Source of the DNA: Chloroflexota bacterium
Lineage (GTDB): Bacteria > Chloroflexota > Dehalococcoidia > E44-bin15
Direction of reading: 5' to 3'
Assembly (NCBI GenBank): GCA_034189655.1
Contig: JAXHUE010000002.1
Location: 32,207-96,206, forward strand
DNA: 64,000 bases
How positions within the stretch are numbered: position 1 is the first letter of the stretch; every line of letters starts with the position of its first letter. Made by a program: the position numbers and the translations under genes. The notes under the pieces were generated by a model. It saw nothing but the letters and a program-made list of their open reading frames with translations. It did not search any database and was not told where the DNA came from. Shown in pieces: positions 5,845 through 59,443 of the stretch.

Positions 5845-6162
5845 ATGCTCAAATTCGATGACAAGGGGCTCATCGCCGCCATCATCCAGGACGCTGAGAG
5901 CGGAGAGGTGCTCATGCTGGGGTACATGAACGAGGAGTCCCTCAAGAGGACGCGAGAGAGCGGCCAGGCCTGGTTCTACAGCCGCAGCCGCCAGGAGCTG
6001 TGGCACAAGGGTGCGACGTCGGGGAACTACCTAGACGTCTGCGCCATCTGGAAGGACTGCGACGCGGACGCACTGCTGGTGAAGGTGAGGCCCCACGGGC
6101 CTGTCTGCCATACCGGGAACAGGAGCTGCTTCTACCGCGAGCTGGACGGCCCCGAGGAGTAG
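5845..6162 (+). CDS. hisI: Phosphoribosyl-AMP cyclohydrolase HisI
   Basis: 105 aa. LIAAIIQD...CHTG...SCFY motifs. RBS GGAGGA upstream. Confidence 0.9.
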
Positions 6163-6206
6163 CCGAAGGCCGCGCCCGCTCGTGGCACCGTGCCGGTTCA
6201 TAGAGA

Positions 6207-6233
6207 GAAGGGCCGCCTCTGGGCGGCCCCTTC
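6207..6233. terminator. Bidirectional intrinsic terminator between hisI (+) and rpmE (-)
   Basis: GAAGGGCCGCC-tct-GGCGGCCCCTTC perfect GC-rich hairpin at the convergent junction, flanked by A/T on both sides. Confidence 0.6.
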
Positions 6234-6448
6234 TATGTCGCTGGCCCCTGTCTCTTCTCGTAGCGCCTCTTGAAGCGCTCCACCCTGCCCGCGGTGTCTA
6301 CGATGCGCCGCTCCCCGGTGAAGAAGGGGTGGCACTTGCTGCATATCTCGACCTTGAGCAACGGCTTGGTGGAGCGAGTGGTGAAGGTGTTGCCGCAGGC
6401 GCAGGTCACCTGCGCCTCGTCGTAGTGGGGGTGAATCTTTTCCTTCAT
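6233..6448 (-). CDS. rpmE: 50S ribosomal protein L31
   Basis: 71 aa. MKEKIHPHY...CACGN...[10 protein letters not shown] is the canonical zinc-ribbon-type L31. Confidence 0.95.
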
Positions 6449-6454
6449 ATCGCC

Positions 6455-6709
6455 TTATGCGCCGTAGACGCTTACCTTCTTTCTCTCTTTGGTTGCCGGC
6501 TCGAACCTGACCACGCCGTCGGTCAAGGCATAGAGTGTGTGGTCGCGCCCCACACCGACGTTGACCCCGGGGCGGATGCGGGTGCCCCGCTGCCGCACGA
6601 TGATGGTGCCGGCGTTCACGTGCTGCCCGTCGGAGCGTTTCACTCCCAGCCGCTTCGACTGGCTGTCTCTCCCCAGCTTGGTGCTTCCGCCACCCTTTTT
6701 ATGTGCCAT
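6455..6709 (-). CDS. rpmA: 50S ribosomal protein L27
   Basis: [62 protein letters not shown] is nearly identical to the L27 consensus. Real start is the ATG at 6709; the 184-aa track ORF is an upstream frame extension. Confidence 0.95.
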
Positions 6710-6759
6710 CTCCCTGTCCTGCCTCTTGTCCTGGAGTTGTGTGTGCCCCGGCCCGGGGC

Positions 6760-7092
6760 CTACATGTACATGTTCGCTATCAGCATGGGGACGAAGATCG
6801 TCACCGCGCTCACAGTGAGCCCCAGTATCACCAGGCAGCCCACTACGGCTGCGGCCGTGGCCAGGCCCCGGCTGGTGCCCCCCTCGGCGACGGTGTGGCG
6901 CCTGACCATGCCGCCGAATATGGAGAATATGGCGAAGGCGCCCGCTATGCCCCACAGTGCGAACGAGGCCACGCTGTGAGGCCACCAGAAGTGGAACATG
7001 AAGGTCCATATCGCGATGACGCTCGATGCGTATATGACGATATCGCCTGTGGTGTAGGCCCTCTCCCTGGTGTCTCCCGTCTCTGCGCTCAT
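6760..7092 (-). CDS. Small integral membrane protein (about 3 TM helices) encoded between rplU and rpmA
   Basis: 110 aa, strongly hydrophobic segments with aromatic-rich stretch FMFHFWWPH. No recognised family. Sits where Firmicutes carry the Prp (ysxB) protease. Confidence 0.5.
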
Positions 7093-7093
7093 G

Positions 7094-7405
7094 CTAGCTC
7101 ACGATCTCCTTGATGGCCAGCCTGGTGTAGGGCTGGCGGTGTCCCTTGCGGCGGCGGTAGCGCACCTTGGGCTTGTACTTGTACACCACCACCTTGGCCC
7201 CCTTGCCCGCGGCGACGACCTCGGCGATGACCTTGGCCCCGGCAACGGTGGGAGAGCCTACGGACACATTGTCCCCGTCGGCCACGAGCAGCACCTGGTC
7301 GAGCTCAACGGTGCTCCCTTCCTCTGCGGGGAGACGCTCGACGAAGACGGTATCTCCCGGAGATACCCGGTACTGCTTCCCTCCGGTTCGAACTATGGCG
7401 TAGAT
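7094..7405 (-). CDS. rplU: 50S ribosomal protein L21; start codon appears to be AUC
   Basis: Translation (I)YAIVRTGGKQYRVSPGDTVFVERL...KPKVRYRRRKGHRQPYTRLAIKEIVS aligns residue-for-residue with L21 (MYAIIKTGGKQ...). There is an in-frame TAG 4 codons upstream, no ATG/GTG/TTG at the aligned position, and AGGAGG 6 nt before ATC. Confidence 0.8.
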   Translation of the reverse strand: MYAIVRTGGKQYRVSPGDTVFVERLPAEEGSTVELDQVLLVADGDNVSVGSPTVAGAKVIAEVVAAGKGAKVVVYKYKPKVRYRRRKGHRQPYTRLAIKEIVS

Positions 7406-7436
7406 GCCCTTCCTCCTCTAGGTATTCCAAATAGCT

Positions 7437-7465
7437 ATTGTAGCAGCTACGCCCTGGGCTGTCAA
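7437..7465 (-). promoter_or_regulatory. Sigma-70-type promoter for the rplU operon (TTGACA-17-TACAAT on minus strand)
   Basis: rc of 7460-7465 is TTGACA and rc of 7437-7442 is TACAAT, with a 17-nt spacer. About 30 nt upstream of the rplU RBS. Confidence 0.6.
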
Positions 7466-7473
7466 CGTCGGGG

Positions 7474-8427
7474 CTACTGCTCCTCCTCCTGCAGCGCCTC
7501 GACCAGGGCCTCGATCTCGTCCACGGTGGCCGTGAGCGAGGCGAGGGCACACCGGCCCCCGCTCGATATCTCCACCCTCTCCAGGAGAGGCCCGGCCTCG
7601 GGTGGGAAGTCCTCGCTTAGAGGGATGAAGGTCTTGGCGGTGAGGAGCAGGGCGGCGAACGTGTTGGCCAGGGCAGAGGAGGTGAAGCACACCTTGACCT
7701 CTATGGTGACGTCCGGCCCCACCTTGTTGAGGCTGGCGCCCACCGCCTCCACGCTCTCCATCGTCTCTTCGTCAATGGGGATATCGTCGCCGGACACCTC
7801 GTCGATCGCCTGTGGCGGTATCTCTGCCGCCACCTTGACCCACACGTCGCCGAACGCAGTGTAGGTGTCGGCCACCGGGCCGCTTATCGGGGCCGCGTAG
7901 CCGACGGCGACATCGATGCCGTCGCGCACCGCCTCGTAGGTGCCGGCGATCACCATGGTGCTGCTCAAGAAGCAGAGGGCGCTCTCCCCGGTGGAGTCGG
8001 TGTATATCTGGTACCCCTGGTATTGGCCCGGGATCAGCTCCTCTCCGCTCTCCTGCTCGATGGCGTCGAGGAGTGCCCCCTGGTCGAACTGGCCTTCCAG
8101 GATGAAGGCCACGTAGTCCTCGACCTCACTGTCGGCGAACAGCACCATCTCGGTGAAGTCCCTGGGGTCGATGCCTGTCTCCGCCGTTACCTGTGCCAGC
8201 GCCTCGTCCACCGTCTGCGGCATGCCCGGGTCCTTCTCCGCCTGGTCGTAGGCCTCTATCAGGTCGGGGTCGGTGAGGATATCGTCTATCTGGATGCAGG
8301 CGATGGTGTTGGCCCGCTGCGGCAGGGGGTCGGTCACCGGCTCTGGAGCAGGGGGTGTGCACCCGGCCCCTACCACGGCGATGACCAGGGCGAGCGCGAT
8401 AGTGGCTGATACCGCCCTCTTCATCAT
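7474..8427 (-). CDS. Secreted/lipoprotein-like acidic protein of unknown function
   Basis: Signal peptide MMKRAVSATIALALVIAVVGAGC (lipobox-like GAGC), then a highly acidic soluble domain. Start placed at the ATG preceded by GGAGGTG. Confidence 0.6.
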   Translation of the reverse strand: MMKRAVSATIALALVIAVVGAGCTPPAPEPVTDPLPQRANTIACIQIDDILTDPDLIEAYDQAEKDPGMPQTVDEALAQVTAETGIDPRDFTEMVLFADSEVEDYVAFILEGQFDQGALLDAIEQESGEELIPGQYQGYQIYTDSTGESALCFLSSTMVIAGTYEAVRDGIDVAVGYAAPISGPVADTYTAFGDVWVKVAAEIPPQAIDEVSGDDIPIDEETMESVEAVGASLNKVGPDVTIEVKVCFTSSALANTFAALLLTAKTFIPLSEDFPPEAGPLLERVEISSGGRCALASLTATVDEIEALVEALQEEEQ

Positions 8428-8475
8428 GACGCACCTCCACACTAGTGGAGAATGATACCACCTCTTGCCTCATAA

Positions 8476-10372: not shown

Positions 10373-12816
10373 TACTCAGCCGGCTGCTGCGGCTGTCGCG
10401 GCCCTGCCGGGCGGGTGAGGAGCACGATGAGCAGGATGAGGAGGGCGGCCCCCACTACCCCGATGATAACCCAGTACCACCACACCCACTCGAAGCCACC
10501 GGCTGCCTCTGACGCGAACACCGCCCAGCTACTGAGCTGATTGGTGGTGGCGCACACCGTCCCCGCCGAGGTGCTGACCGTCGAGGGCACTATCTCCCAC
10601 GACGAGGTGCTGGTGTTGTACCTTGCCAGCGTGAGCTTGGTGGCATCGCCGCCGGCGGCATTGACGTCGGCGGAGGTGTACCTCACGCAGATGGTGACAT
10701 CAGCACCCAGCGTCCCTGTGGCCGGCGAGGTGGTGATGGAGAAGTAGCTGTTGCCCACCTTGTAGCCCGTAGGGGCCACCGGTGTCGACGTTGAAGAGAT
10801 GGTCACCGTGGTGCTCTGGGTGAAGGCACCCGAGGGTATGGTCAAGGTGACCCTGCTGTCGCTGGTGGTCACTGTTCCGCCCGTCGTCCCCACGGTACCT
10901 GAGCCCTGGAAGGGCGGCGTCGTGGGCGTCGCTGTCGGCGAAGGGGTAGGCGACGGTGTCGGCGAAGGGGTAGGCGACGGTGTCGGCGATGCCGTCGGCG
11001 TTGGCGAAGGAGTGGTCGTCGGCGTCGGCGTCGGCGTGGGCGTCGCTACCGGTGTCACCGTGGGCGTCACCGTCGGGGTCACTGTCGGCACCGTGGTAGG
11101 TGTCGGTGTCGGTGTCGGCGTCAGCGGGAGCGTGAGGTTCACCTTGAACTCGAAGTCCTTCTCCGCGGTGGCCTCCTCGTTGCTCCCCTTGTCGAAGGAG
11201 GAAACGGTGATGCCGTAGAACTGGCCGTTTATAAACGAGGGCAGTGCCGGCGTGGTGGAGGTGGTCACCTTCCAGTCTTCTGAGAGCTCGTTGAAGGTGC
11301 CGTCGGTGGCGGTGGCGAAGATCCAGTCCCACCACGCTGTGCCAATGTTCCCCCACTCGTCAGTGCCCCAGCCGGCGCCGTTCCACACCGGGTCGACCCC
11401 GGTATCGAAGCCATCTGCGCCCAGGTCGTGCCATATGCGCACGATGACGGCGTCTATCTCACCGGAGGCGTCCCCGGCCACGCCCTGTATGCTGGTCAGG
11501 CTGTTGTACACTATGCTGGGGATGGCGTTTATGCTGGTGTCGGGCACCGTGTCATCGTAGGTGAAGGACTCGGTGTTGGAGAGCTCAGGCGTGTTCACGC
11601 CGTCGTCGGACCTCACCTGCACCTGGTAGGTATCGCCGTCCACCCAGGTGGGAAAGCCGTCTTTCATGTCACCGGGGTCACAGGTCCAGTCCTGCTGGTC
11701 GTCTCCCCACAAAGTACCAAGGGTGCAGATGGGGGCGTTGGCCCAGTCCAGGTCGCCCTCCCAGTTGTTGAGGTCAAGGTCCCAGTCATCGCCGTCCCAG
11801 TACATGTCGTTGGTCTGGTCGTATATCCTGATGCTGACGGTTGCCACCAGCTCACCGGTGCCTGGCCTGGAGGTGCCGCTGAACTGGTTTATGTAGGCGT
11901 AGTTGGGGCCGATGTACTCGGGGAGGGGGTCTACGTAGGCATCGGCCGTGGTGAGCTGCTTCCTGTAGGTGAAGGTCTTAACCTCATCGACGAAGTCCCT
12001 GTTGTCCGCCCCATCGGCGGTCTGGGCGTCAATGGAGTACATGTAGCCGTTGTACCAGTCGGGCAGGGGCGGGGTGGTGTTGGTGGCTATGCGCCACGAC
12101 GTGGTGCCCGCCGTCTTGATCCACACCTCGTCGGCCTGCCAGAAGCTCCCGTTCCAGCACAGGTCGTCACCGGCATCAAAGATGCCATCGGTTCCTCCAG
12201 CAGGTGAGTCCCACCATATCATGGTCCGCACCTGGTTGATGGTGCCTGGGGAGTTGTCGGCAGCGGTACCCTCGACCTCGGTGAGGGAGTAGATGGTGTC
12301 GGCGAAGGTGGTGGTGAAGCTCACGTCCGGCAGCTCATCGTCTAAGGTGAAGGTGCCGGAGGACGGGCTGTTGTCCACGTAGCCGTCATCGTCCACCGCC
12401 CTGGCGTACACCGTGTAGCCCTTGCCGTTGGTCAGGTCTGTCTGCAGCATCCCTGCACCGGTGGTGAAGTCCCAGTCCCACTGGTTGTCTCCCCAGTTGG
12501 GGCCGGGGGCTATATCGTTCCACAGGTCGGGGTCATTCACCCAGGCGGTGCCGCCATCGTCCCAGCGGTAGCCGTCGTGGTTGCGCACGATCTGTACCTG
12601 GACAAAGTCGATGGTGCGCGGCGCCTCGCAGATGGACGTGCCCGAGATCATGGGAACGTCGTTGGTGAAGGCGGGCAGTGGGTCCATGTAGGTGTTCGGC
12701 GGTGTCACCGCCTCTGCCGGCCCGGAGCGGGCCAATGGCAGCGCCACGGCCACCAGTGCGAATAGCATGACTACTGCAATCGTGACGCGCCACCAGGAAC
12801 CAGACATACTGTTCAT
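10345..12816 (-). CDS. Cell-surface protein: signal peptide, 4 W/D-rich ~130-aa repeats, Pro/Thr linker, C-terminal beta domain, TM anchor and acidic cytoplasmic tail ([10 protein letters not shown])
   Basis: 823 aa. N-terminal hydrophobic signal ([19 protein letters not shown]). Four repeats sharing [IV]R[IM][WY].D..W..G..W motifs. About 75-aa (PT/PS)n linker. C-terminal hydrophobic helix [24 protein letters not shown], then a charged tail. RBS AAAGGAGAGGAAAG before the ATG. Confidence 0.8.
10905..11135. repeat. Low-complexity tandem DNA repeats encoding the Pro/Thr/Ser linker of the surface protein
   Basis: 24-nt unit GTCGGCGAAGGGGTAGGCGACGGT repeated in tandem, plus (GTCGGC)n and (GGTGTC)n runs on the plus strand. 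Codes (SPTP)n/(TPTV)n on the minus strand. Confidence 0.7.
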
Positions 12817-23700: not shown

Positions 23701-24924
23701 CTACGCGGCCTCTCTGTCCAGCTCGAAGGCGCGGTGGAGGGCCTGCACCGCGTCGGGCACCTGGCCCTCGTTGATGATGCAGGTGACCCTGATCTCCGAC
23801 GTGGTGATGAGCTCGATGTTGATGCCGGCATCGTACAGGGCGCGGAACATCCGCGCCGCGTAGCCGGGGGTGTTCTGCATCCCCGTGCCCACGATGCTCA
23901 CCTTTCCCAGCGCGGCGTCGGCAACGCAGCCGGCGGCCCCGATGGAGCTGGCCACGGGCTCGACCACGCGCATCGCCTTCTCGATGTCTCTCCTCGATAC
24001 CGTGAAGGTGAGGTCGGTGACGCGCTCCGCGCTCGCGTTCTGGACGATGGTGTCCACGCTGATGCTCTCCTGGGCCAGCGGCTCGAATATGGCGGAGGCG
24101 ATCCCCGGTTGGTCGGGGACGCCGCGTATGGTGATCTTGGCCACATCGAGGTCGTGGGCTATCCCTCGCACCTTGTTCCGCACTTCCATATATACGCCTC
24201 CATGGATAGTGGTCCCTGGGCTCTCGCTGAAGCTGGATGCCACCAGGATGGGGATGTGGTACAGCTCCCCCAGCTCCACGGAGCGGGGGTGGAGCACCTT
24301 GGCCCCGTAGGTGGCGAGCTCCAGCATCTCCTCGTAGCCGATGTCCTTGAGCTTGCGCGCCTGGGGCACGATGTGCGGGTCTGCGGTGTAGACCCCTTCC
24401 ACGTCGGTGTATATCTGGCACACCTCTGCCCCCATCCTCGCTGCCAGTGCCACCGCCGTGGTGTCGGAGCCGCCGCGGCCCAGGGTGGTGATGTCCATCT
24501 CTCTGGTGATGCCCTGGAAGCCGGCGACGATGACGATCTTGCCGCTGTCCAGCTCCCTGTGGATGCGCTTGGCATCGATGGCGAGGATGCGCGCCTTGCT
24601 GTAGACCGAGTCGGTCTGGATGCCGGCCTGGGCGCCGCTCAAGCTGATGGCGCGGTGGCCCAGGCCTTTGAGCGCCATGGCGAGCAGGGTGCTCGACACG
24701 ATCTCTCCGGTGGACATGAGGACGTCGAGCTCCCGCTCGTCGGGCTGGTCGCTTATCTGGTTGGCGAGACGGATGAGCTCGTCGGTGGTCTTTCCCATGG
24801 CGGAGACCACCACCACTACCTGGCTGCCCTGCTCCCTGGTCGCCGCGATGCGCCGGGCAATGCTCTTGATCCTCTCGGCGTCGGCCACTGAGCTCCCGCC
24901 GTACTTCTGCACTACTATTGCCAT
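23701..24924 (-). CDS. Aspartate kinase with C-terminal ACT domains
   Basis: MAIVVQKYGGSSV...VVVSAMG kinase N-terminus and two ACT domains. Start at 24924; the track ORF has a 75-codon spurious extension. Confidence 0.9.
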   Translation of the reverse strand: MAIVVQKYGGSSVADAERIKSIARRIAATREQGSQVVVVVSAMGKTTDELIRLANQISDQPDERELDVLMSTGEIVSSTLLAMALKGLGHRAISLSGAQAGIQTDSVYSKARILAIDAKRIHRELDSGKIVIVAGFQGITREMDITTLGRGGSDTTAVALAARMGAEVCQIYTDVEGVYTADPHIVPQARKLKDIGYEEMLELATYGAKVLHPRSVELGELYHIPILVASSFSESPGTTIHGGVYMEVRNKVRGIAHDLDVAKITIRGVPDQPGIASAIFEPLAQESISVDTIVQNASAERVTDLTFTVSRRDIEKAMRVVEPVASSIGAAGCVADAALGKVSIVGTGMQNTPGYAARMFRALYDAGINIELITTSEIRVTCIINEGQVPDAVQALHRAFELDREAA

Positions 24925-24932
24925 GGCGGTGT

Positions 24933-26123
24933 CTAAAACCCTCCTATCAGCCTGCCCATCACGGTGTGCCCTTCCTCTATGAAGACAGCGGTGCCCCCCG
25001 CCTCGCTCTCGTCGAAGCCTGTTGCCCCGCTGGCGGCGACGCCGGGCCCCCAGAGCACGAAGGGGACCGGGTCGGCGCTGTGGGCCTTGGTGGCGATGGG
25101 CGTGGGGTGGTCGGGGAGGGCCACGACACGCAGGGCCCGTCCCCTCCACGGCAGGAGCCTGGCCACCATCTCGCGGTCGACGCTCTCGATGGCCGCCACC
25201 TTGTCCTCGATGGAGCCGGCGTGCCCCGCCTCGTCGGTGGCCTCCACGTGAACCACCACCAGGTCGTACTCCTCGAGGGCACCGAGGGCACCCTCCATCT
25301 GCGCCGCGTAGTCGTTGTCGAGGCTGTCGGTGACACCGGCGATGTCCAGCATGTCCATCCCGGAGAGCCGGGCCAGGCCCCCCAGGAGGTCGACCCCTGA
25401 TGTCATGGCGGCCTTCACCCCGAACCTCTCCCTGAAGGAGGGGACGGCGGCTGTCTTGCTGCTGCCCCAGAAGAGCCAGATCATGGCGGCCGGCACCTGG
25501 CCGCGGGACTGCCGCGCCGCGTTCAGCGGGTGCCCCTCCAGCACCTCCTGGGAGCGCAGCATGAGGTGGCGCAGGAGCTCGCTGCCCTCGCCCCGGGGCA
25601 GGTGCTCAGCGATGGGCTCGCCGGCGATGTCGTGGGGGGGGCTGCACGTCGCCCGCAGGGTCTCGGGGTGCCCGCGTATCTTGCAGATACTTCTGAAGCT
25701 CACACCGGGATAGAACTGCACCTCTTCGCTGGCAAGCCCCTCTTGTATGGCCTCCATCAGCACGTGGGCGTCCTCGCTCTCGATGTGGCCGGTGCTGTAG
25801 TCCCACATCCTGCCGTCGCGGACGGCGACCAGGTTGCAGCGGAATAGCGCATCGCCGTCCTCTACGGGGATGCCCATGCTCAGCGCCTCGATGGCGCTGC
25901 GGCCCTGGTAGTAGACCCTGGGGTCGTAGCCCATGATGGACATGCAGGCGCAGGCGCTCGACGGCTCCATGCCCTGGGGCACGGTGCGCACCAGGCCCAC
26001 CATGCCCTCCCTGGCCAGGCAGTCCAGGTGAGGGGTATGGGCCAACTGGAGGCAGGTCTTGCCGCCCCGCTCCGGGATGGGCCAGCCCGCGGCCCCATCG
26101 ATGATGAGCACGCAGTACTTCAT
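24933..26123 (-). CDS. Cofactor-independent phosphoglycerate mutase, archaeal ApgM-type family (candidate non-orthologous homoserine kinase)
   Basis: MKYCVLIIDGAAGWPIPE...TPHLD, alkaline-phosphatase-superfamily metal site. 8-nt gap to aspartate kinase downstream. Confidence 0.75.
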   Translation of the reverse strand: MKYCVLIIDGAAGWPIPERGGKTCLQLAHTPHLDCLAREGMVGLVRTVPQGMEPSSACACMSIMGYDPRVYYQGRSAIEALSMGIPVEDGDALFRCNLVAVRDGRMWDYSTGHIESEDAHVLMEAIQEGLASEEVQFYPGVSFRSICKIRGHPETLRATCSPPHDIAGEPIAEHLPRGEGSELLRHLMLRSQEVLEGHPLNAARQSRGQVPAAMIWLFWGSSKTAAVPSFRERFGVKAAMTSGVDLLGGLARLSGMDMLDIAGVTDSLDNDYAAQMEGALGALEEYDLVVVHVEATDEAGHAGSIEDKVAAIESVDREMVARLLPWRGRALRVVALPDHPTPIATKAHSADPVPFVLWGPGVAASGATGFDESEAGGTAVFIEEGHTVMGRLIGGF

Positions 26124-26209: not shown

Positions 26210-26284
26210 CGGGGCGTGGCGCAGTCCGGTTAGCGCGCAGCGTTCGGGACGCTGAGGTCGGTGGTTCAAATCCACTCGCCCCGA
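26210..26284 (+). tRNA. tRNA-Pro (anticodon CGG)
   Basis: Cloverleaf by hand: acceptor CGGGGCG/CGCCCCG, D-arm GCGC-AGUCCGGUUA-GCGC, anticodon arm CAGCG-UUCGGGA-CGCUG, T-arm GGUGG-UUCAAAU-CCACU, discriminator A, no encoded CCA. Confidence 0.85.
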
Positions 26285-53220: not shown

Positions 53221-53340
53221 ATGCTCTCCCCCTCGTCACTCTTGACCTGATGGGTCCATTTTACTTGACAGAACGATGACAATATTATACCATGCCGCTG
53301 TAGAATAATAACACAGGCGTCGTAAAAACCCCAAGAGACA

Positions 53341-53430
53341 CGAAAAAGGCAAACCCTGGGAAATCAGGGGACGCAAAGCTGCGAGTCTACGGCGAAAAAG
53401 GTGCTATGACGGTCGGGCTGCCGAAACTAA
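53341..53430 (+). promoter_or_regulatory. Candidate c-di-GMP-I (GEMM) riboswitch aptamer in the 5' leader of the hybrid kinase gene
   Basis: AAGGCAAACC-CUGG-GAAA-UCAG-GGGACGCAAAGCU matches the Vc2 aptamer core GGGCAAACC-AUUC-GAAA-GAGU-GGGACGCAAAGCC with identical spacing (complementary 4-bp stems around a GAAA tetraloop). The 3' half is a CGGCG...UGCCG-closed helix containing CUAUGA (tetraloop-receptor-like). I could not fold P1 by eye. Confidence 0.6.
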
Positions 53431-53437
53431 AACAGGT

Positions 53438-53480
53438 GAGCCCTCTCAGGGTAGTACTGGGGAGGGCTTCTCGCATTTTA
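53438..53480 (+). terminator. Intrinsic terminator-like hairpin (putative riboswitch expression platform) before the kinase start codon
   Basis: GAGCCCUC...GAGGGCUUC 7-bp stem followed by UCGCAUUUUA. 20 nt upstream of the ATG at 53501. Confidence 0.5.
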
Positions 53481-53500
53481 CTGCAGGGGGGTCGGTAATA

Positions 53501-56500
53501 ATGAAGAGAGGGGATGTGAGCAAGCAGGACCAGGGAGTTGAGGGCAGGAAGAGGGAGGCAAAGCGGGAGGAGGAGGTCCCGGAAGAGGGGCTTCTGGAGC
53601 GGGTTGAGAGCAGTGCCGAGGAGCTCGAGCGCTCGGAAGAGCGATACCGGGAACTTGTAGAGAACATAAACGACGGCTATCTGGTGGTGAGGGGGCGAAA
53701 GGTCGTTTTCGCCAACAGGCGGTGCGCCGACCTCCTGGGATACCCGGTGAGGCAGATCGTAGGGAAGAACTTCGCAGACCTCGTAGCCGAGGAGTCGCGT
53801 GAGGGGGCGGCAGAACTCTACAAGAGGAGCATGAGCGGGGAGCGACTGTCAGAGCGCCGTGAGGCCTTATTACGGCGAAAAGACGGTACAAAAGTACCGG
53901 TCGAAATGACCCTAAAGGACATCACCTATGATGGCAGGCCCGCTGTCTCTGCCATGTTCTGTGATATCACGGAGAGAAAGGGAGTGGAGCGTGAGCTGTG
54001 GCGGAGGACGTTTGAGCTCGGCGAGCGAGTCAAGGAGCTGAACTGCCTCTACAGCCTCTCCAATCTGGTGCAGCGGCGGGATATAGCGCTCGCTGAAGTA
54101 TTTCAGGGCGCGGTCGAGCTCGTCCCCCCGACATTGCAGTACCCTGATGTGGCGTGTGCCCGGCTGCTCATCGAGGGCCAGGAGTACAGGACGGGCAACT
54201 TCGTCGATACCGAATGGAGGATAAGCTGCGATGTCACTGTGCATGGCGAAGTCATAGGGAAACTGGACGTCTGTTACGCAGAAGAGGTACAGAAGAGCTA
54301 CGGGGGCGTATTCCTTCCAGAGGAGAGGGCACTGCTCCATGCCGTCTGCGGGCGGCTGGGTGAGACCATAGAGAGACGGCGGGCGGAGGGGGAGATTAGG
54401 GCCTCGAAGGAGAAGTACCGCCACCTGCTCGAGGAGATACACGATGGCTACCTGGTGGTACAGGGGGGAAGGGTGGTCTTCGCCAACACGCGCCTGGGGG
54501 AGATACTGGGCTACGGCCCTGAGGCGCTGGGGCGTCCCGTCAATGAGTTCATGCCAGAGTATCTACTGGGCCGGGCGACCGAGCTACGGGAGAGGGTGGT
54601 AAGCGGCGAGGACATATCAGAGCCCATGGAGACCACGGTGCTCACCAAGGACGGCGCCGAGCTGCCCATAGAGGTCAGTATTAAGACGACAGAGTACGAG
54701 GGGAAGCTGGCCATCGCTGTGCTGGTGAGGGACATCTCCGAGCGCAGGCGCGCCGAGGAGATGCGCAGGCGCGAGGAGGAGAAGTACCGCTACCTGTACG
54801 AGTATCAGCCTGCGGTGAACTTCATTATTGGCAATGATGGGACACTGGTGGACATCAATCAGGCGGGCCTGTCCACGTTTGGCTATACGAAGGATGAGCT
54901 CGTGGGCAGGGGTGTCCTCGACCATGTCGTCCCCGAGGAAAGGGAGCGCGTGGCACAGCAGATGGCCAGGGCATTCCAGGGTGAACACACGCCGGGGCTG
55001 GACGTGGATATCTACGCCAGTGACGGCTCGGTCCACACCATGTGGTTCTCACCGGGCCACGTGATCCCGGCGGATGGGGCGCAGCAGGCCATCATGCTCG
55101 CCACCGGTGTCGACGTCACCGAGCGTAAAATGGCGGAGGAGGAGCGCAGGCGCGCGGAGGAGAGGTACCGCCAGCTCCTGGAGGACATAGACGACGGCTA
55201 CTTCGTGGTCCAGGACGGAAAGATAGTCTTTGCCAACACCAGGTGCACCGAGATCCTGGGCTACGGGCCGGAGGCCATTGGGGAGTCTGTGGCCACCTTC
55301 GTGCCGCCGGGACAGGAGCATCACATAGCCGCCTTCGGGGAGGCCTTCTCCGGAGAGGGTGAGGTGGCGCTGCACGACGAGATGTCGGTGCTCACCAAGG
55401 ATGGCAGCGAGGTCCCGGTGGAGATACACGCCAGGAGGGCGCTGTACATGGGTCGGCCCGCCCTCACCGTCGTCATCAGGGACATCTCGGAGCGCGCGCG
55501 CGCGGAGCGGGAGCTCAAGGCATCGGAGCAGAGGTACAAGGCGCTCCTGGAGGACATAAACGACGGTTACTTCGTGGTCCAGGACGGCGTGATAGTGTTC
55601 GGCAACGGGCGGCTGGCCGAGATGTTCGGATATTCGCTCGATGAGGTGCTGGGCAGCCGGCTCGTCGACATTGCGCTGGACAGCGCAAAGGATATGGTGG
55701 CGCTCATGATGTTCGCCTTCGAGCAGGGAGGGGCCGTCCCGGAGCGCGTGGAGATTACCGGGACCGATCCCAGGGGGGGCGGCGATATCACCATAGAGAT
55801 AAGGATGAGCGTCATCGACTACCTGGGACGGCCGGCCATAAACGGCATCATCAGGGACATTACCGACCGCAAGCGCGTTGAGATGGCGCTTCAGGCGGAG
55901 AAGGCCTACTCCCAGTCGCTGGTGCACAGCCTGCCCGATATGCTGCTCACCATAGACCCTGAGGGCAAGATAAGCTATGCCAACGATGTGATGGTGGTCT
56001 TCACTGGCGTAGAGCTGGAGCAGCTCGTGGGGAGGCCCCTGGGGCAGGTACTGCAGGAGATAAATATCCTGGACGCCCGGACGGCCACCCTCGTTACCAG
56101 GCGCATGAAGAAACGGTTGAAGACAGGCCTGCCGGCGCGGGGCGTAGAGCTGGAGATGAGAAATGCCAGGGGTGAGTGGGTGAAAGGCCTGTACTCGACC
56201 TCTGTGATAAAGTCCCCCAGCGGCGAGATCCTGGGGCAGGTGGTGGTCATCAGTGACATCACCGACCGCGTGAAGGCAGAAGAGGAGCTCAAGCGGTCGG
56301 AGGAGAAGTACCGCAGGCTGGTGGAGGACATAAACGACGGCTACTTCGTGCTCCGCGATACCACCATCCTCTTTGCCAACGAGAGGATGGCGGAGATGAT
56401 GGGCTACGGCCTCGATGAGATCGTCGGGGAGGAGTTCCTCAGGTTCCTCGCACCAGAGGCGATAGAAGTGCCCACGCAGGTACACCAGAGGAGCATGGCC

Positions 56501-59443
56501 GGCGATGCCGTAGCCGGGCGCTACGAGACCGTGGTCGTCCGCAAGGACGGGTCCAGGATGGAGATAGACTTCAGCTTGAAAGACATTACCTTTGAAGGCA
56601 GGCCGGCGGTCTCCATCGTGGCCCGGGACATCACAGAGCGCAAGCGTGCGGAGAAGGAGCTCAAGGCATCCGAGGAGAAGTATAGGGAGCTAGTAGAGAA
56701 CATCAACGATGCCTATGCCGTGGTGCGGCGCGAGAACCTGGTGTACGTGAACAAGCGCTGTGAGGACATATTCGGCTATACGGCTGGCGAGATGGTGGGC
56801 CGGAGCTTCTTCGAGATGCTGGCGCCAGAGGTGGTAGAGCAGAACCTAAAGATACTGGCGGCGAGCCTCGACGGTGGCGACCTGCCCGACCACTACGAGA
56901 CCACTGCCATAACGAAGAGCGGCCAGAGGGTAGAGATAGACGTGAGCATACACCCTATCACGTACGAGGGGAGGCCTGCCTTCTCGGTGATGGCCCGGGA
57001 TGTGAGCGACCGCAAGCGGGCCGAGGATGAGCTCAAGCAGTCGGAGGACAAGTTCCGGCACCTGGTGAACGATATGCTCGACGGCTATGTCGTGTTGCAG
57101 GATGGCACCATCAGGTTCGTCAATGCGGCGCTGGCACAGATGAGTGGCTACTCGAGCGAGGAGCTGGTGGGCCGGAGATACGACGACCTGCTTGCCGTCG
57201 ATACCTCCCCGCTGGCCAAGGACATACGCCGCAGGGTTGCCGAGGGTGTGGAGGTCATGGAGCGGTTCCGGGGCGAGATCATAAGGGAGGACGGCACCGT
57301 GCTCCCCGTGGAGGCCGGTATCAAGGGCGTAGAGTATGAAGGACGTACCGCGGTGTCGGTCGTGGTGAGGGACATCACGGAGCGCAAGCGGGCAGAGGCC
57401 GAGATAGAGCGCCGCAACCGGGAGCTGGCCGTCTTGAACGAGGTGGCCCAGGTGGTGAGCCAGTCACTGGACATAGAGAAGATACTGAGCGACACCATGG
57501 ACCTGGTGATGGACTTCATGGAGACGGAGGCGGGCTGGATAGCGCTGGTGGACAGGGACAGCAACCGCTTTCTGCCGCTGGTGAAGAGGGGGGTGCCGCC
57601 GGAGATCCTCGCCATCATGCCAGACATCACCCCCGATATGGGGCTGGCCAGCCACGCCATCAGGACGGGCCAGCCGGTGGCACTCAACGACATTCGCCAG
57701 AATAGCATAGATGAGCTCGCTAAGCCGGCGCGTCCTCTCATGGGAAAGGTAGAGTTCAAGGCGCTGGCGCACGTGCCCATAGACTCAAAGGGAGATATAA
57801 TTGCCGTCATGACACTGGGCAGCCGCACCAAGCCGTCGTTCAGTGAAGGGGAGCTGGGCCTGCTCGGCTCCATCTGCCATGAGATCGGCGTCGCCATAGA
57901 GAATGCCCGCCTCTATGACGAGATAAGGGCGAAGGCCCAGGAGCTGGAGAAGGCCAACCGGCACAAGTCTGAGTTCATGGCCAGCATGTCCCACGAGCTG
58001 CGCACGCCGTTGAACTCCATCATCGGCTTCTCCGAGCTCATGCTCGATGGCATAACCGGAGACATAAACGATGAGCAGCAGCAGTGCCTGGAGGACATCT
58101 TGACCAGCGGTAAACAGCTCCTCATCCTCATCAACGGTGTCCTCGATATCTCGAAGATAGAGGCCGGCAAGCTGGAGGTCATGCCGGAGGTCTTCGACAT
58201 CGGGGAAGTGTTCGATGAAGCGCGGAGGACGATGTCGCCACTGGTGGAGGAGAAGGTGCAGACCCTCACCATGCACATCGAAGAGGGCATGCCCCCGATG
58301 TACGCCGATAAGGGGAAGATAAAGCAGGTGCTTTTGAACCTGCTCAGCAACGCCGTCCGCTACACCAATGACGGAGGCTCCATCGCGGCCGAGGCCAGGA
58401 GGGAGGGTGACCTCTGCCGCATATCGGTCGCCGATACCGGGATAGGCATCAGGGAAAAGGACCTGGAGAACGTCTTCCAGGCCTTCACGCAAGTAGGGGA
58501 ATCGCCGCTGAAGAAGGAGGGAGGTACCGGGCTGGGGCTTGCCATCGCCAAGCAGTTCGTAGAGATAAACGGCGGCATGATATGGGTCGAGAGCGAGTAC
58601 GGCAAGGGGAGCACCTTCATCTTTACCGTGCCCATCTATCGGGCGGATATGAAGCACAGTGAAGCGAAGAGGGAGGAGATGGTGCCCACCGCTGCCGAGG
58701 GTGGCGAGAGGTGCATCATGGTGGTGGACGACGACCGCGGGGCCAGGTCGCTCATGAGGCGCTGGCTGGAGGCAGAGGGGTATAGCGTGTGCGAGGTGTC
58801 GCAGGGCGCGGAAGCTGTGGAGACGGCCAAGAGAATTCGGCCCGCGGTGGTCACGCTGGATATAATGATGCCCGGCGAGGATGGGTGGACTGTGCTGCGA
58901 AGCCTAAAGACCACCAATGAGACGCAGGATATACCGGTAGTCATCGCATCCATGGTGGAGAACAGGGAGCTGGGCTTCGCGCTGGGGGCGGTGGACTATT
59001 TCGTGAAACCGGTGGAGAAGGAGCGCTTCCTTAAGAGGCTGACTGAGCTGGGCATAGGGAAGAGAGAGCGCGTGCTGGTGGTCGATGACGAGCCCAGAGA
59101 CGTACGCCTGACATCTGCCATCCTGGAATCGGAGGGGATGGAGGTGCTCAAGGCCTACGGGGGAAAGGATGGCCTGAAGCTTGCCAGGGAGAGACAGCCC
59201 AGCCTGATAGTGCTGGACCTCCTCATGCCCGACATGGACGGCTTCGAGGTGGTGCGGCACTTGCGGGAGGACGAGAGCACACAGGACATCCCCATAGCCA
59301 TCGTGACCATGAAGGAGCTCTCCGCCGAGGAAGAGGCAGAGCTTGCGAGCCAGGTGCAGTCCGTGATGCAAAAGGCTTCCTTCGATAGGAATGCCTTCAT
59401 CGCTGAGATAAGACGTATCGAGGGGCCACCGAGAGGGGGATAG
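53501..59443 (+). CDS. Hybrid sensor histidine kinase: about 10 tandem PAS domains, GAF, HisKA, HATPase_c and two C-terminal receiver domains
   Basis: 1980 aa. Repeated PAS linker motif ERKRAEEELKxSEEKYRxLVExINDGY. HisKA H-box SHELRTPLNSIIGFSEL. G-box GTGLGLAI. Two REC domains (VVDDD...D...K). Confidence 0.9.
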   Translation: MKRGDVSKQDQGVEGRKREAKREEEVPEEGLLERVESSAEELERSEERYRELVENINDGYLVVRGRKVVFANRRCADLLGYPVRQIVGKNFADLVAEESREGAAELYKRSMSGERLSERREALLRRKDGTKVPVEMTLKDITYDGRPAVSAMFCDITERKGVERELWRRTFELGERVKELNCLYSLSNLVQRRDIALAEVFQGAVELVPPTLQYPDVACARLLIEGQEYRTGNFVDTEWRISCDVTVHGEVIGKLDVCYAEEVQKSYGGVFLPEERALLHAVCGRLGETIERRRAEGEIRASKEKYRHLLEEIHDGYLVVQGGRVVFANTRLGEILGYGPEALGRPVNEFMPEYLLGRATELRERVVSGEDISEPMETTVLTKDGAELPIEVSIKTTEYEGKLAIAVLVRDISERRRAEEMRRREEEKYRYLYEYQPAVNFIIGNDGTLVDINQAGLSTFGYTKDELVGRGVLDHVVPEERERVAQQMARAFQGEHTPGLDVDIYASDGSVHTMWFSPGHVIPADGAQQAIMLATGVDVTERKMAEEERRRAEERYRQLLEDIDDGYFVVQDGKIVFANTRCTEILGYGPEAIGESVATFVPPGQEHHIAAFGEAFSGEGEVALHDEMSVLTKDGSEVPVEIHARRALYMGRPALTVVIRDISERARAERELKASEQRYKALLEDINDGYFVVQDGVIVFGNGRLAEMFGYSLDEVLGSRLVDIALDSAKDMVALMMFAFEQGGAVPERVEITGTDPRGGGDITIEIRMSVIDYLGRPAINGIIRDITDRKRVEMALQAEKAYSQSLVHSLPDMLLTIDPEGKISYANDVMVVFTGVELEQLVGRPLGQVLQEINILDARTATLVTRRMKKRLKTGLPARGVELEMRNARGEWVKGLYSTSVIKSPSGEILGQVVVISDITDRVKAEEELKRSEEKYRRLVEDINDGYFVLRDTTILFANERMAEMMGYGLDEIVGEEFLRFLAPEAIEVPTQVHQRSMAGDAVAGRYETVVVRKDGSRMEIDFSLKDITFEGRPAVSIVARDITERKRAEKELKASEEKYRELVENINDAYAVVRRENLVYVNKRCEDIFGYTAGEMVGRSFFEMLAPEVVEQNLKILAASLDGGDLPDHYETTAITKSGQRVEIDVSIHPITYEGRPAFSVMARDVSDRKRAEDELKQSEDKFRHLVNDMLDGYVVLQDGTIRFVNAALAQMSGYSSEELVGRRYDDLLAVDTSPLAKDIRRRVAEGVEVMERFRGEIIREDGTVLPVEAGIKGVEYEGRTAVSVVVRDITERKRAEAEIERRNRELAVLNEVAQVVSQSLDIEKILSDTMDLVMDFMETEAGWIALVDRDSNRFLPLVKRGVPPEILAIMPDITPDMGLASHAIRTGQPVALNDIRQNSIDELAKPARPLMGKVEFKALAHVPIDSKGDIIAVMTLGSRTKPSFSEGELGLLGSICHEIGVAIENARLYDEIRAKAQELEKANRHKSEFMASMSHELRTPLNSIIGFSELMLDGITGDINDEQQQCLEDILTSGKQLLILINGVLDISKIEAGKLEVMPEVFDIGEVFDEARRTMSPLVEEKVQTLTMHIEEGMPPMYADKGKIKQVLLNLLSNAVRYTNDGGSIAAEARREGDLCRISVADTGIGIREKDLENVFQAFTQVGESPLKKEGGTGLGLAIAKQFVEINGGMIWVESEYGKGSTFIFTVPIYRADMKHSEAKREEMVPTAAEGGERCIMVVDDDRGARSLMRRWLEAEGYSVCEVSQGAEAVETAKRIRPAVVTLDIMMPGEDGWTVLRSLKTTNETQDIPVVIASMVENRELGFALGAVDYFVKPVEKERFLKRLTELGIGKRERVLVVDDEPRDVRLTSAILESEGMEVLKAYGGKDGLKLARERQPSLIVLDLLMPDMDGFEVVRHLREDESTQDIPIAIVTMKELSAEEEAELASQVQSVMQKASFDRNAFIAEIRRIEGPPRGG
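53630..57420 (+). repeat. Array of about 9-10 diverged tandem direct repeats (about 375-390 nt each) encoding the PAS modules
   Basis: Recurrent DNA blocks such as GAGGAGAAGTACCGC...CTGGAGGACATAAACGACGGCTACTTCGTG at 55.15, 55.53, 56.29, 56.67 and 57.05 kb. Confidence 0.6.

Follow-up and report, generated by a model that had tools for sequence, protein, structure and literature searches.

We found that rplU, the gene for ribosomal protein bL21 in a 64,000-nucleotide stretch of Chloroflexota DNA (hereafter the window), has no canonical start codon and most probably begins translation at an AUC codon on the minus strand (7405–7403). We assign a probability of about 0.9 to the reading that the gene is functional and that this AUC supports genuine initiation by initiator tRNA. 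Comparison with relatives identifies the AUC as an inherited trait of the lineage and not a sequencing error. A sequencing error is very unlikely because 14 independently assembled relatives also have ATT or ATC here.

The rplU start region

On the minus strand, an in-frame TAG stop codon (7420–7418) closes the frame upstream of rplU. It is followed by AGG AGG AAG GGC, by the ATC (7405–7403; GAT on the plus strand), and by TAC GCC ATA GTT CGA ACC GGA GGG AAG CAG, and the translation behind the stop is RRKG-IYAIVRTGGKQ. The ATC aligns with the start methionine of L21 orthologs, and none of the four codons between the TAG and the ATC is ATG, GTG, or TTG. A Shine–Dalgarno sequence, AGGAGG (7412–7417, minus strand), lies 6 nt before the ATC. 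Read from this codon, the coding sequence (7094–7405, minus strand) comprises 103 codons followed by a TAG stop (7096–7094). Its 103-aa product scores 128.9 bits against the L21 model TIGR00061 (cutoff, 43.7 bits), with residues 2 to 102 aligned to model positions 1 to 101. The first in-frame canonical start is a GTG at codon 38 (7292–7294, minus strand), and ORF finding that accepts only ATG, GTG, and TTG begins rplU at this GTG, yielding a truncated product of 66 aa. A sequence-only reading of the window had proposed that rplU lacks a canonical start and that ATC is the aligned initiator, and both the minus-strand reading and the L21 alignment bear this out. The same holds for its description of the surroundings, with AGGAGG 6 nt upstream, an in-frame TAG four codons upstream, and no ATG, GTG, or TTG before the conserved N terminus.

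A sigma-70-type promoter is predicted farther upstream (7437–7465, minus strand), composed of TTGACA (7465–7460), a 17-nt spacer, and TGc-TACAAT, with the −10 element at 7442–7437. It matches at 11 of 12 positions, carries the TG extension in addition, and is the sole such site in 6300–7700, where 0.1 would be expected in shuffles. The distance from the end of the −10 element is 19 nt to the AGGAGG and 31 nt to the ATC, and the implied 5′ UTR of rplU is approximately 25 nt. The TTGACA-17-TACAAT promoter noted in the sequence-only reading is thus present, and only its placement 25 nt further upstream was approximate.

Among the 48 genes called in the window by GC3 periodicity, rplU alone has both a distant first canonical start and an AUH codon that is preceded by a Shine–Dalgarno sequence and lies near the upstream stop. 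The AUH start (AUU, or AUC as here) is apparently not a general property of this genome. A possible second case, in the frame 23701–25605, where a 152-codon stretch has no canonical start, was rejected as noncoding or other-frame sequence. Downstream of that stretch, an aspartokinase-like ORF has a normal start at MAIVVQKYGGS.

The aligned start codon in relatives

Loci of rplU were taken from species-representative genomes (n = 80) and from metagenomes (n = 80), and the codon aligned with the window ATC was read in each. Contigs of additional relatives (loci L161–L165 and L173) were obtained via a protein collection. The codon is ATT in 11 relatives (L001, L002, L004, L081, L082, L083, L085, L155, L161, L162, and L163) and ATC in three (L164, from SRR7614767; L165, from ERZ23498360; and L173, from GCA_022564695.1). 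With the window included, the DNA-verified AUH starts (n = 15) comprise 11 ATT, four ATC, and no ATA or ATG. These relatives are independently assembled MAGs and metagenomes from different projects, and the named ones are annotated as Dehalococcoidia or Chloroflexota. L21 identity to the window ranges from 53% to 80% in 13 of the 14 (the 14th has no score against the window): 80% for L081, 75% for L001, 73% for L082, 71% for L002, 69% for L083, 65% for both L004 and L085, and 53% for L155. The remaining loci of the two contig scans have ATG, GTG, or TTG at the position, or a methionine one or two codons upstream. In three of the MAGs (L161, L162, and L173), NCBI annotation already places the start of rplU at the ATT or ATC: the rplU coordinates open exactly on that codon, and the deposited sequences have M as their first residue.

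These data bear on the choice, posed by the sequence-only reading, between a rare AUC initiation and a single-base error in an essential gene. The comparison with rplU of close relatives that it had proposed gave 11 ATT and three ATC at the codon and supports the former. Because ATC is one substitution from ATG, a sequencing or assembly error would need only one wrong base, at 7403, for the true codon to be ATG. The position is nevertheless ATT or ATC in 14 independent assemblies, three of them with ATC, and it is ATG in none of the 14 close relatives that share the architecture. Moreover, no other gene of the window has a damaged start. We consider the chance of such an error negligible.

All 15 loci have T or C as the last base of the start codon, and adjacent third positions are saturated (GCC, GCT, GCA, GCG, and so on). 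ATC is restricted to loci with a G+C content of at least 0.62, where it is found in four of eight, an association that is not significant (p = 0.09); ATT is retained in the 69% G+C loci L004 and L085. Retention of T or C even at 69% G+C favors a constraint on the start codon. In seven of the first nine AUH loci, the frame from the upstream stop to the AUH codon contains no ATG, GTG, or TTG; the exceptions are L002, with a GTG embedded in the Shine–Dalgarno sequence, and L085, with a TTG directly abutting the ATT.

Coding constraint around the AUH codon

Across 14 AUH loci, mean column entropy at codon positions 1, 2, and 3 is 0.50, 0.28, and 1.30 bits over codons 2 to 26, compared with 1.48, 1.60, and 1.69 bits over the eight triplets upstream of the AUH codon. 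This difference between the downstream and upstream patterns indicates that protein-coding constraint begins at the AUH codon and not before it. Compared with five relatives, the window rplU shows 28 to 37 codon differences that are synonymous only and 21 to 26 that change the amino acid, and the synonymous-only differences are in excess once site numbers are considered. The comparison indicates that the window rplU is under purifying selection.

Translation could in principle start elsewhere, either at the downstream GTG to give a 66-aa truncated L21, at another near-cognate codon, or at an upstream start via recoding. Standard gene callers do pick the GTG at 7294, and in-frame TTG, ATG, or GTG codons occur upstream in L161, L164, L165, L002, and L085. 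However, residues 2 to 37 (YAIVRTGGKQY...) are conserved at the amino acid level with synonymous third-position change and are therefore translated, which a start at the GTG would not accommodate. On the upstream side, the window has the in-frame TAG five codons before the ATC, the upstream triplets lack coding periodicity, and the upstream TTG of L164 and L165 lies at or near the predicted 5′ end of the transcript and has no Shine–Dalgarno sequence. At every locus, a GGAGG-type core is instead spaced 6 to 9 nt from the AUH codon. We regard a start elsewhere as very improbable.

The missing canonical start is also the one feature that would fit a decaying pseudogene, with a second functional rplU elsewhere in the genome. 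That account is at odds with the intact 103-codon ORF and its 128.9-bit match to TIGR00061, with the excess of synonymous-only differences, and with the conservation of the operon position beside rpmA and an ORF at the bL31 position, as well as of the promoter and Shine–Dalgarno sequence. We give it as little weight as a base error.

Shine–Dalgarno sequence, promoter, and leader

Each of the 14 loci scored (the window and 13 relatives) has a GGAGG or GAGG core 6 to 9 nt before the AUH codon, and in L173 a Shine–Dalgarno sequence read by eye lies 8 nt upstream. The full GGAGG is found at 12 of 14 AUH loci versus 77 of 137 canonical-start loci (p = 0.04), a weak difference in a comparison that ignores phylogeny. 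Of the 13 to 14 loci scanned, 10 carry a TTGACA-17-TAnAAT promoter ahead of the AUH start. The consensus promoter is not a specific compensation for AUH, because the ATG-starting relatives L172, L029, and L041 carry it too.

Rfam scans detected no RNA element at rplU, either in 6000–8000 (E ≤ 1) or across the whole window (at the gathering threshold), and the covariance model of the L21 leader (RF00559) gave no match upstream of rplU in 6000–8000, even at E ≤ 1. Folding of the predicted leader with the early coding region, for the window and three relatives, revealed no conserved or unusually stable structure; relative to shuffles, the initiation regions of these four sequences have z-scores of +0.3 to +1.4. 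We considered a switch at rplU that sequesters the Shine–Dalgarno sequence, and it is not supported, the leader folding being no more stable than that of shuffles.

Other start states within the clade

Several sublineages have a different rplU start. A true ATG start, checked on DNA, is present in L172 and also in L166 and L167. In L168 and L169, the DNA shows an ATG inserted directly before the ATT, for an N terminus of MIYAVV, and L085 has the start TTG-ATT. L170 (94–462) and L171 (829–1176) encode an L21 with a conserved lysine-rich N-terminal extension that is predicted to be UUG-initiated and has its own Shine–Dalgarno sequence. This extension is 12 to 19 residues long and is also found in proteins P0005, P0008, P0014, P0018, and others. 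In L21 proteins with this extension, the residue at the old start site varies freely among A, T, G, D, N, S, V, and I, as expected if the ATH constraint exists only where the codon is the initiator. The replacement of AUH by canonical starts in some sublineages indicates that it is not indispensable and makes a conserved regulatory role less likely.

At the other end of the protein, long low-complexity C-terminal tails of Ala, Glu, Pro, and Lys occur in L085 (235 aa), L155 (196 aa), L004 (146 aa), L087 (228 aa), and L173 (183 aa); the 103-aa L21 of the window has no tail.

Distribution among L21 proteins and gene-caller errors

A collection of 5.8 billion proteins was searched, and the 120 proteins closest to the window L21 (68–81% identity) were examined. 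Isoleucine occupies the methionine position in 57 of these 120, in most cases behind heterogeneous, nonconserved N-terminal extensions, which in examples such as MEESR-I, MPSMEKGR-I, and MSWYAILGRKK-I correspond to translated leader. A few of the isoleucine proteins carry a genuine lysine-rich extension instead. A second search, with the L004-type L21 (which has Ala/Glu/Pro-rich C-terminal tails), yielded 23 more isoleucine proteins and approximately 14 proteins truncated by the gene caller at V/MEPNQ. By this comparison, the AUH start characterizes at least two L21 lineages of Chloroflexota. A neighbor-joining tree of 286 L21 sequences left deep relationships unresolved and set L004, L085, and L155 apart from the main AUH cluster; this tree of a short protein is compatible with either one origin of the AUH start or several.

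Dozens of L21 entries of the clade (P0001–P0120 and P0121–P0239) are miscalled by gene finders that accept only ATG, GTG, and TTG. The errors are either spurious N-terminal extensions derived from the promoter and leader or truncations at the internal V/MEPNQ or at GTG codon 38. L21 serves widely as a marker gene, and miscalled rplU can distort L21 marker-gene sequences across the clade and should be corrected.

Proposed mechanism and relation to known AUH starts

We propose that a leader of approximately 25 nt is transcribed from the near-consensus extended −10 promoter, that the perfect AGGAGG 6 nt upstream would position the 30S subunit at the AUC, and that initiator tRNA would read this codon, placing an N-terminal methionine on L21. 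The AUH start, AUU or AUC, is inherited across a large clade of uncultured Dehalococcoidia. A likely consequence would be that the output of the L21(-L27-L31) operon is low per mRNA and sensitive to IF3 activity and growth state.

At the sequence level, the window rplU displays all the features that define an AUH start of the infC/pcnB type. Like infC (AUU, AUA, or AUC) and Escherichia coli pcnB (AUU), it combines a lineage-conserved near-cognate start with a good Shine–Dalgarno sequence and predicted use of initiator tRNA (PMC7797042; PMC5499595; PMC2830850). The analogy with the AUU of infC, drawn in the sequence-only reading, is apt as a mechanism of initiation, with a near-cognate AUH codon behind a good Shine–Dalgarno sequence and in the class that IF3 discriminates against; infC is, moreover, likewise a gene of the translation apparatus. 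The two differ in that the rplU product is not the codon-sensing factor, so that any control by IF3 would act in trans and would not be autogenous. They also differ in that the noncanonical start of infC is widespread in bacteria, whereas that of rplU is restricted to a Chloroflexota clade and is known here from sequence.

Other precedents share some of these features. In Deinococcus, N-terminal proteomics has shown that dnaA starts with ATC and rpsL with CTG (PMC2830850). As with rplU, these starts are lineage-specific, conserved, located in essential or ribosomal genes, and missed by automatic annotation; they belong to another phylum and to other genes, and their N termini were determined by mass spectrometry, whereas the evidence for rplU is comparative (PMC2830850). 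The AUU and AUA starts of Staphylococcus aureus cvfC1, ccpN, and citZ resemble rplU in pairing a conserved weak start with a strong, well-spaced Shine–Dalgarno sequence (10.1101/2025.06.19.660503). In contrast to these low-abundance regulators and enzymes, L21 is a stoichiometric component of the ribosome. Finally, in the rplU-ysxB-rpmA operon of Firmicutes, the L21 leader (RF00559) occupies the same operon position as a cis element that may set output. The window, unlike Firmicutes, has no Rfam match there, and its leader is approximately 25 nt long and unstructured; the ysxB slot is filled by a membrane-protein ORF with no family match. In the literature, we found no description of an rplU with an AUU, AUC, or ATT start, or of a non-AUG rplU. 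The gene would extend the short list of conserved AUU and AUC starts (infC, pcnB, Deinococcus dnaA, and a few others) to a ribosomal protein, in a lineage that is widespread and uncultured.

Possible regulatory significance of the AUH start

A ribosomal protein is needed in high, stoichiometric amounts, and this demand sits awkwardly with a codon that gives 1% to 10% of AUG activity in model bacteria. In E. coli reporters, AUA, AUC, and AUU yield 1% to 2% of AUG, with an N-terminal methionine (10.1101/063800), and the conserved AUU and AUA starts of S. aureus, which always occur with an extended Shine–Dalgarno sequence, yield approximately 10% (10.1101/2025.06.19.660503). The AUU of infC still sustains approximately 5500 IF3 molecules per cell (PMC5499595). 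Discrimination by IF3 against AUH codons is the basis of infC autoregulation (PMC7797042; PMC5499595), and nutrient limitation and ppGpp inhibit mRNAs with non-AUG starts more than others, AUU and AUA being the AUH codons tested (PMC5499595). The rplU start raises the question of how a stoichiometric ribosome component is produced from a codon of this strength and whether its synthesis is coupled to IF3 or the stringent response.

By analogy with this literature, a regulatory layer that makes the L21-L27-L31 operon sensitive to IF3 and growth state can be suggested tentatively. A stronger version, in which the weak AUU or AUC is a selected sensor that makes L21, L27, and L31 synthesis responsive to IF3 activity as well as to ppGpp or the nutrient state, seems to us rather doubtful. 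If true, it would amount to a leader-free, start-codon-based control of a ribosomal-protein operon, replacing the RNA-leader autoregulation of other phyla.

We lean slightly toward a simpler account, in which the AUH start is real and has no regulatory meaning. The codon would be a frozen neutral or slightly deleterious state of a slow-growing lineage, compensated by a strong Shine–Dalgarno sequence and a strong promoter and repeatedly repaired in sublineages. This account is compatible with a genuine AUC start, of which it is a sub-alternative. It fits the independent return to a canonical start by several routes within the clade, the presence of a strong Shine–Dalgarno sequence in all AUH loci, and the apparent drift from AUU to AUC only in loci with a G+C content of at least 0.62 (four of eight). 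Harder to reconcile with it are the T or C at the third base in 15 of 15 loci, over L21 divergence down to 53% identity and beside saturated third positions, and the ATT kept at 69% G+C in L004 and L085. A single change from T or C to G would restore AUG and yet is rare. The clade itself offers natural "repair" variants for comparison, namely ATG, ATG-ATT, and the UUG-initiated lysine-rich extension. A tblastn search of the window and all fetched loci, with an E. coli IF3 query, found no infC.

The rplU operon and its neighborhood

The gene order in the window is rplU-(ORF)-rpmA-putative rpmE. A gene for a predicted membrane protein of 110 aa (6760–7092, minus strand) lies between rplU and rpmA, its ATG 1 nt past the rplU stop, and is probably in the same operon as rplU. 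It has no Pfam or NCBIfam match. L163, L164, and L165 each have an ORF in the corresponding place that is 43% to 49% identical to it, and the motif HFWW is invariant; in L170, this place is taken by an ORF of approximately 105 aa. The rpmA gene (bL27; 6455–6712, minus strand) has an ATG start and matches TIGR00062 with 128.1 bits. It is followed by a 71-aa ORF with an ATG start (6233–6448, minus strand), a putative rpmE (bL31) assigned by position only; a Ribosomal_L31 gene is found at the corresponding position in L161, L162, and L164. The order rplU-rpmA is shared with L161, L162, L164, and L173. The internal gene content of the operon varies within the clade; in L162 (MAG GCA_014859165.1), rpmA and rpmE are separated by an inserted caspase-like Peptidase_C14 gene (10743–11681).

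Upstream of rplU, a gene at 7474–8442 (minus strand) encodes a protein of approximately 320 aa with a hydrophobic N terminus followed by a cysteine (VVGAGC), resembling a lipoprotein signal; family searches gave nothing significant for this protein, only subthreshold DUF hits. L161 has a 319-aa gene at the same position, beside a divergent radical-SAM gene as in the window. Elsewhere in the 64-kb window, tRNA-Pro (CGG) at 26210–26284 (plus strand) is the only tRNA, and rRNA is absent; the organism was placed by protein similarity only, which points to Dehalococcoidia/Chloroflexota MAGs. A c-di-GMP-I-GGC riboswitch aptamer (RF03167; 53339–53426, plus strand) scores 69.1 bits against a gathering score of 59 and sits at the 5′ end of an open frame that extends for approximately 2000 codons (53312–59443).
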